In this document: positions 9,129 to 14,799 of the stretch, one piece after another | Position numbering within the stretch: position 1 is the first letter of the stretch | Layout of the letters: each line of letters starts with the position of its first letter | IMG/VR virus record: IMGVR_UViG_2654587540_000008 | DNA: 14,799 nt | Source: a virus | Taxonomy: Duplodnaviria > Heunggongvirae > Uroviricota > Caudoviricetes | Direction: 5' to 3' (one strand) | Program-made: the position numbers and the translations under genes | The notes under the pieces: model-generated | The model's input: only the letters and a program-made list of their open reading frames with translations | Told to the model about the DNA's origin: nothing | The model's database searches: none

Positions 9129-9205
9129 TGTTTCTTGAACATATTACCCGTGACGGAGAGCGCTGGGATTCTCTGTGGATGAGGCACTGGCCATTGATGT
9201 GCTGA
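9128..9205 (+). pseudogene. Short out-of-frame leader ORF (MFLEHITRDGERWDSLWMRHWPLMC), possible remnant N-terminus of a deleted or frameshifted tail gene
   Basis: ATG at 9128, 25 codons, in a different frame from the J-like ORF that opens at 9175. The J-like protein lacks the N-terminal part expected for baseplate J proteins. The GDxWDSL motif is reminiscent of LysM-like tail protein X N-termini (weak). Confidence 0.3.
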
Positions 9206-9987
9206 TCCCGGCAGGCACCCGCGTCAGCGCTTCCGACAGTATTATTTTTGCCACCGATACAGATGTGGTGCTGAAGGCCGGATTGCTGCTGGTCAATGTC
9301 ACGTCCACCTGTACCGAGCCGGGTACCGCTGGCAACGGCTGGCAACCGGCGCAGGTCAGTCAGTTACTCGATGAGATTGATAACATTGACCTGCTGGTGA
9401 CCAATCTGACGGCCAGCTCTGGCGGTTCAGAGCAGGAAGACGATGACCGGCTCCGGGAGCGTATCAGGCTGGCCCCGGAGTCATTCACCAATGCCGGAAG
9501 CCGTGGTGCATACCGTTTTCATGCTATGGGGGCGCATCCCGGCATTGTCGACGTTGCTGTTCTTTCTCCCGCTCCCGGCACTGTCGAGCTGTATCCGCTG
9601 CTCAGCACTGGTCTGCCGGACAGCAGTATCCTCACTCTGGTAGAGAGTTTCTGTTCTGACGAAAAAGTCAGACCACTCACTGATACCGTGCGGGCTAAAA
9701 CACCTGTTCAGGTGGATTACACCATTGAAGCCAGGATTACGATCTATCGTGATCAGGATGCAAGGTTGGTAAAGGACAACGCTAACAGCGCCATACAGAA
9801 CTGGGTGGCATCCCGTACCGCCACGCTGGGGCGCGATATTGTTCCCAGCCAGATTATCAGCGTGTTGTCCGTTTCCGGGGTGTACCAGGTCGAACTGGTG
9901 ACACCGGCACTGAGGGTGGTGGCAGAAAACGAATGGGCAAACTGTACGGCGATCACTCTTAACATGACCGGGGTGTCCGATGGCTGA
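9175..9987 (+). CDS. Baseplate assembly protein J-like (P2 gpJ / Mu gp47 family), apparently N-terminally truncated
   Basis: 270 aa from the first in-frame start (GTG at 9175). The C-terminal two thirds (..GSRGAYRFHAMGAHPGIVDVAVLSPAPGTVELY...TLGRDIVPSQIISVLSVSGVYQVELVTP...) match the gpJ family as I recall it. An 8-bp overlap (ATGGCTGA) with the I-like gene is typical of J-I pairs. Confidence 0.7.
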   Translation: MDEALAIDVLIPAGTRVSASDSIIFATDTDVVLKAGLLLVNVTSTCTEPGTAGNGWQPAQVSQLLDEIDNIDLLVTNLTASSGGSEQEDDDRLRERIRLAPESFTNAGSRGAYRFHAMGAHPGIVDVAVLSPAPGTVELYPLLSTGLPDSSILTLVESFCSDEKVRPLTDTVRAKTPVQVDYTIEARITIYRDQDARLVKDNANSAIQNWVASRTATLGRDIVPSQIISVLSVSGVYQVELVTPALRVVAENEWANCTAITLNMTGVSDG

Positions 9988-10558
9988 GGTGCTACAACTC
10001 CCGCCACCGCTTGAGGGTGATATCAGTCTCAGAACGCTGGGAAGACTGGCCGGACGGCTGGATAACATCGACCTGAGCGTACTGATGGTCGGTCTCGTCG
10101 ATATTGTCGACAGTTCCGCGCTGCCATGGCTTGGCGAGCAGTTCTCGCTGTTCGGCGATGGCTGGGAACTGGCGGAATCGGACGATGTACGCCGCATGCT
10201 TATCAAATCCGCTATCGAGCTACACCGCTATAAAGGAACACCGTGGTCAATCCGGGAAATTATCCGCCGTTTTGGCTTCGGCGAAGTGGATCTGATTGAA
10301 GGTACGGGGCAGATTGGCTATGACGGCAGACACACGTACAACGGGCTTTTCGTCCATGGCGATGCACAAGCCTGGGCAGTCTATCGGGTCATCCTTCAAC
10401 AGCCCATCACTAATGATCAGGCAGCGCTGTTACGTCAGACGCTTGCTGCCTTTGCTCCGGCTCGCTGTCATCTGGCAAGTCTGGAATATCAGTCTGTCGC
10501 CATTCGATACAACAGTACTACCCGTTATGACGGTAGTTACAACCACGGGAGCAGTTAA
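9980..10558 (+). CDS. Tail protein I-like (P2 gpI / Mu gp48 family)
   Basis: 192 aa containing IELHRYKGTPWSIREIIRRFGFGEVDLIEG, a hallmark-like motif of the gpI family. Positioned between the J-like gene and the tail fibre gene. Confidence 0.75.
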   Translation: MAEVLQLPPPLEGDISLRTLGRLAGRLDNIDLSVLMVGLVDIVDSSALPWLGEQFSLFGDGWELAESDDVRRMLIKSAIELHRYKGTPWSIREIIRRFGFGEVDLIEGTGQIGYDGRHTYNGLFVHGDAQAWAVYRVILQQPITNDQAALLRQTLAAFAPARCHLASLEYQSVAIRYNSTTRYDGSYNHGSS

Positions 10559-10560
10559 TT

Positions 10561-11643
10561 ATGGCAAATCTACCCGAAACCCCGCAGTGGGAAAGCGGCA
10601 TCTACCAGATTGAGGTCTCTGACCCCGTTCTGGGCGGACCTGACGGAATTTCTAACCGCCAGGCTAAACAACTGGCCAGCCGAACGTCATACCTCAAACA
10701 GAAGGTCGAAAAAAGCGAAACAGACCTGGCTGCACATATCGCGGCAGTTGACCCGCATACCCAGTACGCGACGAAAGCCAGTCCGACATTCACCGGCACA
10801 CCAACAGCACCTACACCTGCAAATGGTGATAACAGCAAAAAGCTGGCGACGACGGAGTTTGTGGCCAAAGCACTTGCGGCACTTGCAGGCAGCGCCCCTG
10901 AGACACTGGATACGCTTAAAGAGCTGGCTGACGCTCTCGGTAATGATCCAAACTTTGCGACTACGGTACTGAACAAGCTGGCGGAAAAGCTGGCTAAAGA
11001 CCAGAACGGCGCAGATATTCCTGAGCCTGCGCTGTTTGTCAAAAACCTTGGTTTGGGGGAAGGCTCTGCACTGCCCGTTGGTGTGCCTGTTCCGTGGCCA
11101 TCAGCAACACCGCCAGAGGGATGGCTGAAATGTAACGGCGCAGCATTTTCTTCTGAAATGTACCCCAAACTGGCAAAGGCTTATCCCACGAATAAATTAC
11201 CGGATTTACGGGGTGAATTTATCCGTGGCTGGGATGACGGACGTGGCGTGGATGCGGGGCGAACATTACTGGGTGCTCAGGATTTTGCGTTTGAAGATCA
11301 TGCTCTGGGGCTACCTACCAATCAGGGATATGCAGGTATTGAGAAAGGTAGCACTGAAAATGATATTTATGCCGCTTTCTCTGATGGCATGCACTATACA
11401 GGGAATGCAACCAGTAGCGGTCAATGGGATGATTATTCTCAGTCAAAAATCTATATCCGTAGTGATGGTAAACCTGTCGGAAATAACATTGAGTTAGCTA
11501 ATTCAAATGAGGCCTTGCGTTCTTCTTTACGTACTTATAGAGCCAGTACAGGATGGTATAACCCAGGATTAAACAAACCTAAAACAGCTACAGAAACACG
11601 TCCACGCAACGTTGCTTTTAATTACATCGTAAGAGCCGCATGA
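10561..11643 (+). CDS. Tail fibre protein: constant N-terminal part (10561 to about 11047) fused to currently expressed variable C-terminal cassette A
   Basis: 360 aa. The N-terminus has phage tail-fibre repeat-like sequence (VDPHTQYATKASPTFTGTPTAPTPANGDNSKKLATTEFV). The C-terminal part begins with a tail-collar-like module (WLKCNGAAFSSEMYPKLAKAYPTNKLPDLRGEFIRGWDDGRG) and ends ETRPRNVAFNYIVRAA. The crossover site lies inside the gene at 11036-11061. Confidence 0.85.
   Translation: MANLPETPQWESGIYQIEVSDPVLGGPDGISNRQAKQLASRTSYLKQKVEKSETDLAAHIAAVDPHTQYATKASPTFTGTPTAPTPANGDNSKKLATTEFVAKALAALAGSAPETLDTLKELADALGNDPNFATTVLNKLAEKLAKDQNGADIPEPALFVKNLGLGEGSALPVGVPVPWPSATPPEGWLKCNGAAFSSEMYPKLAKAYPTNKLPDLRGEFIRGWDDGRGVDAGRTLLGAQDFAFEDHALGLPTNQGYAGIEKGSTENDIYAAFSDGMHYTGNATSSGQWDDYSQSKIYIRSDGKPVGNNIELANSNEALRSSLRTYRASTGWYNPGLNKPKTATETRPRNVAFNYIVRAA
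11036..11061 (+). other. Serine-invertase crossover site (hix/gix/cix-like), expression-site copy
   Basis: TTGTCAAAAACC-TT-GGTTTGGGGGAA has the 12-2-12 architecture and AAACC nn GGTTT core of hixL (TTCTTGAAAACC AA GGTTTTTGATAA) and gix sites, as recalled. It sits exactly at the constant/variable junction of the tail fibre gene. Confidence 0.7.
11048..11253 (+). repeat. Conserved 5' cassette module, copy A (tail-collar-like domain coding, ~200 bp)
   Basis: Encodes GLGEGSALPVGVPVPWPSATPPEGWLKCNGAAFSSEMYPKLAKAYPTNKLPDLRGEFIRGWDDGRG. Near-identical DNA recurs at 11649, 12193 and, inverted, at about 13990-14194, with a partial inverted copy at about 13592-13700. Confidence 0.85.
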
Positions 11644-11662
11644 AAACGTTGGTTTGGGGGAA
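11637..11662 (+). other. Crossover-site-like sequence at the cassette A/B junction, with a degenerate left half-site
   Basis: CGCATGAAAACG-TT-GGTTTGGGGGAA. The right half and centre are identical to the expression-site copy; the left half retains only the AAAAC core (5 of 12 matches). Confidence 0.4.
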
Positions 11663-11854
11663 GGCTCTGCACTGCCCGTTGGTGTGCCTGTTCCGTGGCC
11701 ATCAGCCACACCGCCAGAGGGCTGGCTGAAATGCAACGGCGCAGCATTTTCTTCTGAAATGTACCCCAAACTGGCAAAGGCTTACCCCACCAATAAATTA
11801 CCGGATTTACGCGGTGAGTTTATTCGTGGCTGGGATGACGGGCGCGGAGTAGAT
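11649..11854 (+). repeat. Conserved 5' cassette module, copy B
   Basis: Near-identical to 11048-11253 with scattered, mostly synonymous substitutions; the encoded peptide is identical through GWDDGRG. Confidence 0.85.
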
Positions 11855-12187
11855 ACAGGACGTGTTTTATTAAGTAATCAAACAGATGCTTTTCAAACAC
11901 ACAGACATAAGACCTATTTTTATGCAGGTATCAACCGTAATGAAATGCCTTTAAAAAATTTACCTGAATCAGAAGAAATGCTGACATTAAGCTCTACAGT
12001 TAATGCCTTGTCTCCAGCCGATATTGATGCCACAAATTCATTAATTGGGAATGACGATTACAACTGTGTTATTGAAGGCAATAAAAACAGTAAACGTACA
12101 GCGACAGAGTTGAATACCAGCTCTACAGGCACAACAGAAACCCGCCCCCGCAATATTGCTTTTAACTTCATTGTAAGAGCAGCATAG
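11651..12187 (+). CDS. Silent alternative tail-fibre C-terminal cassette B (no independent start codon or RBS)
   Basis: Open frame beginning right after the stop of cassette A. It encodes the same 65-aa tail-collar module, then a divergent ~95-aa region, and ends with the conserved ETRPRNIAFNFIVRAA and TAG. The track start is an internal TTG with no Shine-Dalgarno sequence. Confidence 0.7.
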   Translation, partial: GLGEGSALPVGVPVPWPSATPPEGWLKCNGAAFSSEMYPKLAKAYPTNKLPDLRGEFIRGWDDGRGVDTGRVLLSNQTDAFQTHRHKTYFYAGINRNEMPLKNLPESEEMLTLSSTVNALSPADIDATNSLIGNDDYNCVIEGNKNSKRTATELNTSSTGTTETRPRNIAFNFIVRAA

Positions 12188-12206
12188 AAACGTTGGTTTG
12201 GGGGAA
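12181..12206 (+). other. Crossover-site-like sequence at the cassette B/C junction, with a degenerate left half-site
   Basis: AGCATAGAAACG-TT-GGTTTGGGGGAA; same right half and centre as the expression-site copy. Confidence 0.4.
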
Positions 12207-12398
12207 GGCTCGGCGCTGCCTGTTGGCGTGCCGGTTCCATGGCCGTCAGCCACACCGCCAGAGGGCTGGCTGAAATGTAACGGCGCAGCATTTTCTTCTG
12301 AAATGTACCCCAAACTGGCAAAGGCTTACCCCACCAATAAATTACCGGATTTACGGGGTGAGTTTATTCGTGGCTGGGATGACGGGCGCGGAATTGAC
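12193..12398 (+). repeat. Conserved 5' cassette module, copy C
   Basis: Near-identical to copies A and B; the encoded peptide is identical through GWDDGRG. Confidence 0.85.
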
Positions 12399-12665
12399 TC
12401 TGGTCGCAACCTGTTATCTGCACAGAATGATGCAATTCAGAATATTGTTGGTTCTTTTGGGCGTACCCAGCTTTTTAAAGACGTTCTTAGTTCAGGACCA
12501 TTTAGTAGAATTAATCAAGTTTTATCTATTGGTCTAAAGGAAACGGAATTTATTGAGGGTTATGGAGCTTATAACTGGACATTCGACGCTTCTCGAGCGG
12601 TTCGTACAGCATCTGAAACCCGCCCCCGAAATATTACATTTAACTATATCGTGAGGGCGGCTTAA
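12195..12665 (+). CDS. Silent alternative tail-fibre C-terminal cassette C
   Basis: Same conserved 5' module, a divergent middle (..NLLSAQNDAIQNIVGSFGRTQLFKDVLSSGPFSRINQVLSIGLKETEFIEGYGAYNWTFDASRAVRTAS..) and the conserved end ETRPRNITFNYIVRAA, stop TAA at 12663-12665. No start codon context. Confidence 0.7.
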   Translation, partial: GLGEGSALPVGVPVPWPSATPPEGWLKCNGAAFSSEMYPKLAKAYPTNKLPDLRGEFIRGWDDGRGIDSGRNLLSAQNDAIQNIVGSFGRTQLFKDVLSSGPFSRINQVLSIGLKETEFIEGYGAYNWTFDASRAVRTASETRPRNITFNYIVRAA

Positions 12666-12671
12666 TTATGA

Positions 12672-13289
12672 TCAACTGACAGTTGCCAGAGGCATTTCCG
12701 GCCAGTTGATATCCGGCGCAGTGCTGAGGTCAGTCGCATTAAGCGCATCTATAAAATCAAGCACGGCGTTCAGTTTTTCCGTCTCCTGTGGCGTCAACTG
12801 GCGTCCGGCTCGTAGTTTGAGATTTATAAGCTCAACGGATGCCATTGCCTGCTCCTCAAGTTGCTGACGATGCGCTCCGGCAGCTTCCAGTTCTGCAGTG
12901 TGCTGTCGTTCCGTATCTGTCACCCAGTTCTCACCATCCCAGATATCATAGATGGTAGCTGGCTGTTTTACCGTCGTATCAGAAGGGTAATCTCCCGGCT
13001 GTGTGATTTGCACAGCGTTACCATTCTCTGTGCTGTAAACCGTCTCGCCTCTGTGGTCTGGGACATATTTCCAGATGTTCTGGTCGGTATCACGACAGAC
13101 AGCGAAGCCAGGGCGCTCTTCCGGTGGCGCGTCAATGCATGAATGAGCCGGAATTCCAACACCATAAGCGAGATATTCAACAGTGGCAGAGAGATATTCA
13201 CGGTTTTCAGCATCGTAGTTATAAACTGTAATATCGCCTGCAGTTGTAGCGATACCATTCTGATCAAGTACTGCAACAGCGTTATTCAT
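12672..13289 (-). CDS. Tail fibre assembly protein (Tfa; Mu U / P2 gpG / lambda Tfa family)
   Basis: 205 aa. The C-terminus ..LNAVLDFIDALNATDLSTAPDINWPEMP has the typical Tfa ending. The start codon overlaps the stop of cassette D as TAATG (translational coupling). It converges on cassette C with 6 bp between stops. Confidence 0.8.
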   Translation of the reverse strand: MNNAVAVLDQNGIATTAGDITVYNYDAENREYLSATVEYLAYGVGIPAHSCIDAPPEERPGFAVCRDTDQNIWKYVPDHRGETVYSTENGNAVQITQPGDYPSDTTVKQPATIYDIWDGENWVTDTERQHTAELEAAGAHRQQLEEQAMASVELINLKLRAGRQLTPQETEKLNAVLDFIDALNATDLSTAPDINWPEMPLATVS

Positions 13290-13700
13290 TAAATAGCCCT
13301 TACAATATAGTTAAACGCAATATTACGGGGGCGGGTTTCTGTTCCTGTATTCCCTCCGTTGACACCTAACCTGTACACACCACGAGTGCCAATAGCACGT
13401 AGTGAAGATGGAACCTTTACGCCTGACTCATCTGTTTTAACTATCCCTCCATCCCCGTATGTAGCCAGTATACCAGGATTTGTACCTGCACGTGTGCTGT
13501 TTGCAGCAAGCCCTTCACCGGTCCATAACTCCATATAGTGAGTATGATCCATAACCGAATGTGGTTGTGCATTAAGCAAGAAACGCCCTGAATCAATTCC
13601 CCGTCCGTCATCCCAGCCACGAATAAACTCACCCCGTAAATCCGGTAATTTATTGGTGGGGTAAGCCTTTGCCAGTTTGGGGTACATTTCAGAAGAAAAT
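13289..13700 (-). CDS. Alternative tail-fibre C-terminal cassette D (inverted orientation, 5' end truncated by an N run), followed by tfa
   Basis: Minus-strand frame encoding ..SSEMYPKLAKAYPTNKLPDLRGEFIRGWDDGRGIDSGRFLLNAQPHSVMDHTHYMELWTGEGL...TGTETRPRNIAFNYIVRAI. The first ~100 bp of the conserved module are missing where the N run 13701-13710 sits. Confidence 0.7.
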
Positions 13701-13710
13701 NNNNNNNNNN
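13701..13710. other. Run of 10 N at the cassette E/D junction; assembly gap or masked sequence
   Basis: By comparison with the A/B and B/C junctions, about 97 bp of conserved sequence (crossover site plus start of the tail-collar module) is expected here, so the 10 N do not represent true length. Confidence 0.9.
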
Positions 13711-13715
13711 CGTTT

Positions 13716-14194
13716 CTATGCTGCTCTTACAATGAAGTTAAAAGCAATATTGCGTGGACGAGTTATATTAAAAAATGACCCACTTAAAGCAACTTTGGAA
13801 CGGCTATTGGCGTTACCCAGAGATGCGTACCATAAATAATCGCTCCGATAATCAGTTGAGAATGTTTTATCACCGCCATAATCAATGCTATTACCGTTAC
13901 TCATATATGAAATATCAACTGAAGCATCATTGTCATCTCTACCACCAACTAAAGTACCTTTCTGCCACCCAAGCAACTGGCGGCCAGGATCAATTCCCCG
14001 TCCATCATCCCAGCCACGAATAAACTCACCCCGTAAATCCGGTAATTTATTCGTGGGATAAGCCTTTGCCAGTTTGGGGTACATTTCAGAAGAAAATGCT
14101 GCGCCGTTACATTTCAGCCAGCCCGCTGGCGGTGTGGCTGACGGCCACGGAACAGGCACACCAACGGGCAGTGCAGAGCCTTCCCCCAAACCAA
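13716..14194 (-). CDS. Alternative tail-fibre C-terminal cassette E (inverted orientation)
   Basis: Minus-strand frame encoding the full conserved module (one substitution, PPAGW instead of PPEGW), a divergent middle (..QLLGWQKGTLVGGRDDNDASVDISYMSNGNSIDYGGDKTFSTDYRSDYLWYASLGNANSRSKVALSGSFFN) and ITRPRNIAFNFIVRAA. The track's upstream extension to 14228 runs through the N run and is not trusted. Confidence 0.7.
13990..14194 (-). repeat. Conserved 5' cassette module, copy E (inverted)
   Basis: Reverse complement is near-identical to 11048-11253. Confidence 0.85.
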
Positions 14195-14204
14195 NNNNNN
14201 NNNN
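14195..14204. other. Run of 10 N exactly where the crossover half-site of cassette E is expected
   Basis: On the minus strand the sequence reads ...CTTTGTTTTG-N10-TTGGTTTGGGGGAA. The N run replaces the left half-site and lies 22 bp upstream of the invertase start. Confidence 0.9.
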
Positions 14205-14226: not shown

Positions 14227-14799
14227 ATGCAAATTGGCTACATTCGTGTGTCAACAAATGACCAGAATACAGATTTACAACGAAACGCACTGAACTGCGC
14301 AGGATGTGAACTGATTTTTGAAGATAAAATCAGCGGAACAAAGTCAGCCAGACCAGGATTGAAAAAGCTACTCAGAACTTTATCAGAAGGAGATACGCTC
14401 GTTGTCTGGAAGCTGGACAGGCTGGGCAGAAGCATGAAGCACCTTATCACTCTTATTGAGGAACTGCGGGGAAAAGGGGTTAACTTCCGTAGCCTTACAG
14501 ACAGCATTGATACGTCAACACCCATGGGACGTTTCTTTTTTCACATCATGGGGGCTTTGGCGGAAATGGAGCGTGAATTAATAGTTGAACGAACACTGGC
14601 CGGACTTGAAGCAGCACGTGCACAGGGGCGTATTGGCGGACGCCGTCCGAAACTGACAAAAGAGCAACATGAACAAATAGCAAGGCTGATCAAAAATGGC
14701 TATAGCAGGAAACAACTGGCAATTATTTACGATATCGGCATATCGACGATTTATCGTTATCACCCGGTAGAAAAGCTACAAACTCAAACTGAGTTGTAA
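14227..14799 (+). CDS. Gin/Pin/Cin/Hin-family serine DNA invertase
   Basis: 190 aa. MQIGYIRVSTNDQNTDLQRNAL...DTLVVWKLDRLGRSMKHL...FRSLTDSIDTSTPMGRFFFHIMGALAEMERELIVERT...GRIGGRRPKL is near-identical in motif content to Gin/Pin/Hin as recalled. The catalytic Ser is at position 9 and there is a C-terminal helix-turn-helix. The track ORF from 14074 is an upstream artefact; stop TAA at 14797-14799. Confidence 0.92.
   Translation: MQIGYIRVSTNDQNTDLQRNALNCAGCELIFEDKISGTKSARPGLKKLLRTLSEGDTLVVWKLDRLGRSMKHLITLIEELRGKGVNFRSLTDSIDTSTPMGRFFFHIMGALAEMERELIVERTLAGLEAARAQGRIGGRRPKLTKEQHEQIARLIKNGYSRKQLAIIYDIGISTIYRYHPVEKLQTQTEL

Follow-up and report, generated by a model that had tools for sequence, protein, structure and literature searches.

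Host-range switches of the Gin/Pin/Min kind are known to act on phage fibers, and the Min multiple-inversion system of plasmid p15B, reportedly described by Sandmeier et al. in 1992 and 1994, serves as a comparison for the locus analyzed here. In prophages of E. coli EC958, the invertible 3′ regions of the fiber genes encode a tail collar domain, and the crossover site of prophage Phi2 reads GAGAGATAAACGTTGGTTTGGGGGAA (PMC4134206). In phage T4, domain D10 of gp37 has the fold of the gp12 collar and is built from two separate stretches of the chain, residues 811-881 and 1010-1026, with the elongated domain D11 (residues 882-1009) as an insertion into D10 (Islam et al., PMC6957217). The same picture, in which the chain doubles back to the collar, is given in PMC12724248 and PMC12609058. 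The term is used in another sense in the Ur-lambda paper, where the "collar domain" is a different, N-terminal part of Stf.

Here, we analyzed a 14,799-nt stretch of phage DNA, referred to as the window, in which five divergent fiber tips share a C-terminal peptide. This peptide is very probably the final stretch of the phage tail collar domain, kept as protein and not as DNA. The peptide and its role in the collar are an ordinary feature that has already been described, and nothing about them is new in kind.

Layout of the invertible fiber locus

The fiber locus belongs to a P2-like E. coli prophage and is a multiple-inversion system of the Gin/Pin/Min type. Within the window lies the tail end of this prophage, with a truncated Baseplate_J gene (9175-9987), a Tail_P2_I gene (9980-10558), and then the fiber gene, after which fiber 3′ fragments lie on both strands; the system consists of a constant fiber 5′ part and five 3′ cassettes, together with a single tfa gene and a single serine invertase. 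As assembled, the tail fiber gene is an ORF of 360 aa (10561..11643, + strand) that joins the constant 5′ part (Sc) to cassette c1 and has its Pfam Collar match at residues 174-221; the shaft is that of a short P2-type fiber, with 163 aa up to the crossover site. Cassette c1 (11050..11643, +) is composed of a collar N-segment, a variable insert of 115 aa, and a C-terminal closing segment. Cassettes c2 (11654..12187, +) and c3 (12198..12665, +) are silent in the window arrangement, and c3 has no crossover site on its 3′ side. The minus strand carries c4 (13716..14194), c5 (13289..13700), which has lost its 5′ 97 nt to an assembly gap, and the tail fiber assembly gene tfa (12672..13289, 205 aa; Pfam Caudo_TAP, 5e-26), whose start overlaps the c5 stop by 1 nt (TAATG). 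Full-length c5 (167 aa) is available at positions 8122-8625 of L003, a locus that, like L004, belongs to the same phage as the window.

The invertase gene (14227..14799, +, 190 aa) encodes a serine DNA invertase of the Gin/Hin/Pin family with the Pfam domains Resolvase (PF00239, 3e-51) and HTH_7 (PF02796, 1e-13), and the closest solved structure is Mu Gin (3uj3/4m6f), matched over the full length (residues 1-185) at E about 1e-90. A scan of the fiber, c3, and Tfa against NCBIfam matched no family. The identical fiber protein is also present in two NCBI E. coli assemblies, and the host is E. coli because the DNA flanking an identical copy of the element matches E. coli abrB-nei-pxpA at 100%.

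The crossover sites are 26 bp long with a 2-bp core and are present in inverted orientation, a layout that fits the 26-bp invertase sites and the consensus in PMC4134206. Three of them lie on the plus strand of the window and one on the minus strand, partly within an N-run, while the fifth falls into the other gap and is intact in L003/L004. The right half, GGTTTGGGGGAA, is invariant across sites and opens each cassette with the codons for G-L-G-E; the left halves vary. Site 1 (TTGTCAAAAACC TT GGTTTGGGGGAA, 11036..11061, +) carries the left half of the constant fiber part and is located within the fiber gene, directly 5′ of the collar domain. Site 2 (CGCATGAAAACG TT GGTTTGGGGGAA, 11637..11662, +) comes after c1, and its variable left half is made up of the last 7 nt of c1, including the stop, and AAACG. 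Site 3 (AGCATAGAAACG TT GGTTTGGGGGAA, 12181..12206, +) comes after c2, and its left half is also the one found after c4. At site 5 (14181..14194, -), the conserved half (GGTTTGGGGGAA) and the core dinucleotide are readable and the rest is in the N-run at 14195-14204; in L003/L004 the hidden half is AAGACGAAAACG, which is non-coding and adjoins the invertase. Comparison with L003/L004 identified the two N-runs as assembly gaps for 97 nt and about 44 nt, the first (13701..13710) hiding crossover site 4 together with codons 1-31 of c5, and the second starting exactly at a crossover core.

Read on the opposite strand, positions 12188-14194 of the window are identical (100%) to L003 7633-9726, and the breakpoints fall at site cores, one of them that of site 3; L004 has a third cassette arrangement. 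Since the window, L003, and L004 are isomers that differ by inversion, the switch is active now or was so recently. In all three isomers, tfa stays linked to c5.

The C-terminal peptide and the collar domain

A six-frame search of the window with the pattern TRPRN[IVL][ATS]FN[YF]IVRA gave exactly five matches, each 1-2 residues before a stop, and so confirmed the five copies listed in the first-pass annotation, including their ends: the stops end at 11643, 12187, and 12665 on the plus strand and at 13716 and 13289 on the minus strand. In a repeat search, the same copies came up as direct family D3 and as inverted pairs I7-I10. The C-terminal blocks are located at 11593..11643 (+) in c1 (ETRPRNVAFNYIVRAA plus stop), 12137-12187 in c2 (ETRPRNIAFNFIVRAA), 12615-12665 in c3 (ETRPRNITFNYIVRAA), 13716-13766 in c4 (ITRPRNIAFNFIVRAA), and 13289-13339 in c5 (ETRPRNIAFNYIVRAI). 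Although these 16 residues had been called strictly conserved, the five peptides differ, with variation at four positions (1, 7/8, 11, and 16), and the string that had been quoted for all of them, ETRPRNIAFNYIVRAA, matches none of the five copies. It is instead the family consensus, and it forms the end of 85 of 120 database homologs. The cassette middles, on the other hand, are as unrelated as had been claimed: the inserts between the two collar segments are 74-115 aa long and mutually dissimilar by BLASTP past the first 10-30 residues.

The start of c1-c4 matches the Pfam Collar family (PF07484) with E about 1e-15 (55-57 bits against a gathering cut-off of 24). In c5, whose 5′ end is in the assembly gap, the match is partial (17.7 bits), and the complete c5 of L003 has the full segment. 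When solved structures were searched by sequence and by profile, the T4 gp37 tip 2XGF (profile E 6e-25) and gp12 (1OCY, 5IV5) aligned over the whole length of the cassettes. The HMMER alignment pairs the cassette tail TETRPRNIAFNFIVRAA one-to-one with the gp37 tail TENTVKNIAFNYIVRLA (2XGF chain 226-242; the chain starts at gp37 residue 785, so chain position equals gp37 residue minus 784). The last 17 residues of the cassette thereby correspond to gp37 residues 1010-1026, and the C-terminal block of c1 is the homolog of residues 1011-1026; in gp12, ETRPWNISLNYIIK is found three residues from the end of the protein (about residues 511-524). At the other end of the domain, D10 starts at gp37 residue 811, whose counterpart in the cassettes is the S of SALPVG, five codons past the crossover core, and the cassette is therefore exactly one collar domain plus its insert. 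The specific roles that had been proposed for the peptide, a trimerization strand or a chaperone tag, are not where this evidence points; it points instead to a homolog of gp37 1010-1026 that completes the collar domain D10.

We propose that each invertible cassette would be one complete collar-plus-insert module, as at the tip of T4 gp37/gp12. The chain would enter the collar domain via SALPVGVPVPWP...LPDLRGEFIRGWDDGRG, then leave the collar and build the cassette-specific receptor-binding insert of 74-115 residues, and finally return, its last 16-17 residues, (T)ETRPRNIAFNYIVRAA, giving the final segment of the same collar domain. With the crossover site five codons 5′ of the collar, the cassette could act as a self-contained folding unit to be placed on a constant shaft. 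That the C-terminal strand packs physically into the collar in these proteins is suggested by the homology to gp37/gp12 together with the pLDDT/DSSP pattern. The AF2 monomer models of c1 and c3 have low mean pLDDT values (47 and 52) and are confident only in the collar N-segment (pLDDT 72-91) and in the last 8 residues (about 80), where FNYIV forms a beta strand; the variable inserts in between are below 50. In the c1 monomer model, with its low mean pLDDT, the confident strand is at cassette residues 190-194. Foldseek searches of solved structures returned 2xgf_A as the top match for both models, followed by gp12, and this pattern in the predicted models is consistent with the homology argument.

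The chaperone question has more than one form. The peptide could also, or instead, be a recognition tag for Tfa, with one Tfa serving five tips. There is one tfa gene for the five tips, and a Tfa homolog was found no more than 900 nt downstream in 66 of 111 collar cassettes of related loci, a rough proportion only, as what follows these cassettes was read with a crude single-sequence phmmer search over a 900-nt window. However, the motif is equally present in T4 gp12, a protein that needs gp57A and is not known to need Tfa or gp38. In the short tail fiber 9cuy_c (554 residues), the motif is at residues 286-304, inside the chain and not as a terminal tag, which argues against any role that needs a free C-terminus, and in the solved gp37 tip these residues are integral to the collar domain (PMC6957217). 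We consider a Tfa tag very unlikely, and Tfa recognition would be at most an additional function of the peptide. In the window isomer, tfa is antisense to the expressed fiber gene and linked only to c5, and a sigma-70 promoter scan of L004 for an independent tfa promoter gave one weak match against 5.8 expected by chance. It is conceivable, if unlikely, that the collar (N-segment and closing strand) presents a common Tfa surface for the five unrelated tips or, alternatively, that four of the five fold without co-expressed Tfa. If either Tfa reading were true, chaperone specificity would be separated from receptor specificity in multi-cassette fiber switches.

Protein- and DNA-level conservation of the cassette ends

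The first-pass annotation had suggested comparing synonymous with nonsynonymous change at the 3′ ends, and we ran this comparison with Nei-Gojobori counts over the 16 codons of the C-terminal block in the ten cassette pairs of the window. The result was a pS of 0.66 against a pN of 0.083, with identities of 0.90 at the first codon position, 0.91 at the second, and 0.51 at the third; a Jukes-Cantor correction applied to the mean values gave a dS of about 1.6 and a dN of about 0.09. The synonymous sites of the block approach saturation. With pS far above pN and a low third-position identity, constraint at the protein level is supported and DNA homogenization is not. The earlier interpretation is therefore upheld for a C-terminal element under protein-level constraint, and not for a recombination module or DNA homogenization. 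The 5′ block of the same cassettes (64 codons) gave very different values, with a pS of 0.21, a pN of 0.003, a third-position identity of 0.83, and exact runs of 52-136 nt.

We extended the analysis to 80 loci of other Enterobacterales, containing 108 collar cassettes; the set used for codon comparison across loci held 98 cassettes, from the 80 loci plus the window, L001, and L002, and left out L003/L004 as the same phage as the window. Between loci, the 3′ block had an identity of 0.89 at the first two codon positions and of 0.44 at the third, compared with 0.81 and 0.44 in the 5′ block. Within a locus, third-position identity reached 0.69 for the 5′ block and only 0.53 for the 3′ block. Taken together, the codon data for the two blocks indicate that the 3′ block is held by protein selection, even more closely than the collar N-segment is. 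It is the 5′ block, which also holds the crossover site, and not the 3′ block that undergoes concerted evolution within the locus. The position of the motif is constant: it ends exactly 2 residues before the stop in all 108 related cassettes, at an LPDLRG-to-motif distance of 72-132 aa. The peptide ends 111 of 117 ORFs with LPDxRG (the other six being two truncated genes and four tfa genes, of which the latter are chance matches to the pattern), and 119 of the 120 top homologs end with the motif. We conclude that the peptide is maintained by purifying selection acting on the fold of the collar, the domain that does not change from tip to tip, and the same selection probably also acts on trimer packing.

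An alternative is that the ~50-bp block serves as a DNA homology arm, with gene conversion and cassette exchange or capture at the 3′ ends. Cassettes c2 and c4 do share an exact run of 39 nt and 90% identity through the block, and the within-locus third-position identity of 0.53 is slightly above the 0.44 found between species. To speak of a conserved block of ~50 bp was nevertheless too strong, as pairwise nucleotide identity ranges from 69 to 90%, and the longest exact runs are only 5-14 nt in the nine pairs other than c2/c4. Efficient RecA-dependent recombination in E. coli has a minimum of roughly 23-27 bp, and most exact runs in the block fall below it. The mean pS of 0.66 and the third-position identity of 0.51 also argue against an arm, as do the equal conservation of the peptide, with saturated synonymous sites, in 98 cassettes of many genera and the existence of two working crossover sites that have no block upstream. 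Furthermore, an arm of this kind is unnecessary because the site-bearing cassettes are already bracketed by repeats of ~214 bp (the cassette's own 5′ block on one side and that of the cassette after it on the other), which are 90-95% identical with runs of 52-136 nt and are far better recombination substrates than the 3′ block. We rejected the homology arm on synonymous-site divergence and short exact runs and regard it as highly improbable; by contrast, the 5′ block, with a pS of 0.21, has the properties of such a substrate. The c2/c4 run and the within-locus value of 0.53 against 0.44 indicate some local DNA exchange or recent common ancestry besides the protein constraint.

The block could also be read as an extended site, bound by the invertase or an accessory factor 5′ of the 26-bp crossover sequence. 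In c1, c2, and c4, the last Ala codon, the stop, and AAACG are the left half of the next site (CGCATGAAAACG or AGCATAGAAACG), and the preceding GTAAGAGC is common to the three as well as to the cassettes of L002, which are arranged alike. Yet the overlap between the block and the 26-bp site is just 7 of 51 nt (the stop and the final Ala codon together with the third base of the Ala codon before it), and it is the same at site 2, at site 3, and at the site after c4. Cassettes c3 and c5 have no downstream site and keep the peptide with other codons, using GTGAGGGCGGCTTAA and GTAAGGGCTATTTAA in place of GTAAGAGC, which lies just 5′ of the overlap. This also limits the earlier claim that each copy is followed by AAACG and the next crossover site, which is correct for c1 and c2, correct for c4 as far as AAACG, where the N-run follows, and incorrect for c3 and c5; what lies 3′ of c3 is TTATGATCAACTGA, followed by the 3′ end of the converging tfa. 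In other genomes, roughly 90% of cassettes have no site after the motif, and the motif is kept. Conversely, the two outermost sites, those with TTGTCAAAAACC (constant part) and AAGACGAAAACG (non-coding, invertase side), have no block upstream, and the invertase-proximal one is an end of the inversion that separates the window from L003. We rejected the extended crossover site on the 7-nt overlap and the participation of block-less sites in inversion, and we give it almost no chance of being correct. At their extreme 3′ end, the site-bearing cassettes do have a small DNA-level component, but it does not account for the peptide.

Implications and comparison with known switches

The identification of the peptide as the closing segment of a collar domain has little importance beyond correct annotation. 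It explains why silent fiber 3′ fragments in E. coli prophages end alike, as these are complete folding units and not arbitrary pieces. Because the two ends of the domain meet and the invertase site is just 5′ of it, inserts of any kind can be exchanged and the shaft junction stays undisturbed. For the engineering of fiber tips, the corresponding rule is to retain the collar N-segment together with the last 16-17 residues and to replace what is between them. The locus is also a worked example of how protein-level conservation can be told from DNA-level conservation inside a repeat array, with a 5′ block that evolves in concert and a 3′ block that does not. The observation that started this work was real but overstated, its protein-level reading being right in general terms and its recombination-module reading unsupported.

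Compared with the T4 gp37 tip and the gp12 collar, the cassettes have the N-segment motif P-x-G-x-P-x-PW ... LPD-x-RG in common and, as in both T4 proteins, the C-terminal motif NIAFNYIVR stands 2-3 residues short of the chain end. The variable receptor-binding part likewise sits between the two collar segments. The differences are in what is carried between and before these segments: gp37 has a long iron-binding needle, whereas the cassette inserts are short (74-115 aa) and unrelated to it, and at most one HxH motif is left (THRHK in c2, DHTHY in c5). The gp37 shaft, likewise, is replaced here by a short P2-type fiber.

As a switch, the locus resembles the Gin/Cin/Pin/Hin systems in its serine invertase, which is closest to Mu Gin, and it shares with them and with the EC958 systems the 26-bp sites, which are built around a 2-bp core and have one half conserved. 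As in the EC958 prophages, the invertible 3′ parts of the fiber gene encode a tail collar domain, and as in the Min system, several cassettes are permuted by successive inversions. Mu and P1 have two alternatives, each with its own tfa (U/U′), whereas here there are five cassettes and one tfa that is tied to c5. Matches were found in more than 2,000 E. coli genomes, and the locus is a multi-cassette member of the known Gin/Pin/Min fiber host-range switches, with thousands of relatives in E. coli genomes.

Cassette order in three assemblies

The element in the window (compared over 12188-14194) recurs at 99.8-100% identity in L003 (7633-9726) and L004 (7186-9177), two E. coli assemblies encoding the same fibre protein, and the three differ in the order and orientation of the 3' tail-fibre cassettes c1-c5. 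With primes marking the opposite orientation and tfa denoting the tail fibre assembly gene, the order is c1 c2 c3 tfa' c5' c4' in the window, c1 c2 c4 c5 tfa c3' in L003, and c1 c5 tfa c3' c4', without c2, in L004. The three arrangements are inversion isomers of one element, and their breakpoints fall at crossover cores.

The N-runs at 13701-13710 and 14195-14204 are assembly gaps and not one-to-one masks: the former stands for 97 nt, in which crossover site 4 is followed by codons 1-31 of c5, and the latter for about 44 nt, covering the outer half of site 5 and a spacer. The start of the latter coincides exactly with the crossover core dinucleotide, as would be expected if the sequenced culture contained mixed isomers.

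The single tfa gene and the missing tail genes

The five tips are accompanied by only one tfa (12672-13289, minus strand), whose start overlaps the c5 stop (TAATG, 13289-13291), and the gene stays linked to c5 in 3/3 isomers. In the window isomer, the fibre gene that is expressed is Sc-c1, formed by the constant 5' part (Sc) and c1, and tfa lies antisense to it, so that no co-oriented tfa would accompany production of the Sc-c1 fibre. No tfa promoter was found in a sigma-70 consensus scan of L004, which was rated uninformative.

A stretch of 2510 bp in L004 (2099-4608) is absent from both the window (junction at about 9169-9175) and L003. Since the genes for tail protein X, gpD, baseplate V and gpW/gp25 lie in this stretch, along with the 5' end of the baseplate J gene, the prophage copy in the window is probably defective; even so, its fibre cassettes are intact and inversion continues.

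Likeness among cassette ends, and HxH motifs in two tips

The cassettes begin with blocks of about 214 bp (11048-11261, 11649-11862, 12193-12406 and, on the minus strand, 13981-14194) containing the crossover site and the collar N-segment. They share 90-95% identity, including exact runs of 52-136 nt, and their third-position identity is 0.83 in the window and 0.69 within loci in general, compared with 0.44 between species, a likeness that reflects concerted evolution or recent duplication of the 5' block. The 3' block does not share this pattern. An exact run of 39 nt (54 nt at 94%) is common to c2 (at 12137-12192) and c4 (at 13711-13766, minus strand), extending through the C-terminal block and its TAG stop into AAACG, while the middles of these two cassettes are unrelated, which suggests local exchange or common origin of these 3' ends and the adjoining crossover half-site.

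Single HxH motifs occur in c2 (THRHK, about 11899-11913) and c5 (DHTHY, about 13544-13558, minus strand), directly after the collar N-segment, where the family consensus is F-E-D-H-A-H. They resemble the HxH motifs that bind metal in the needle of T4 gp37, and by analogy the short c2 and c5 tips may have retained one metal site.
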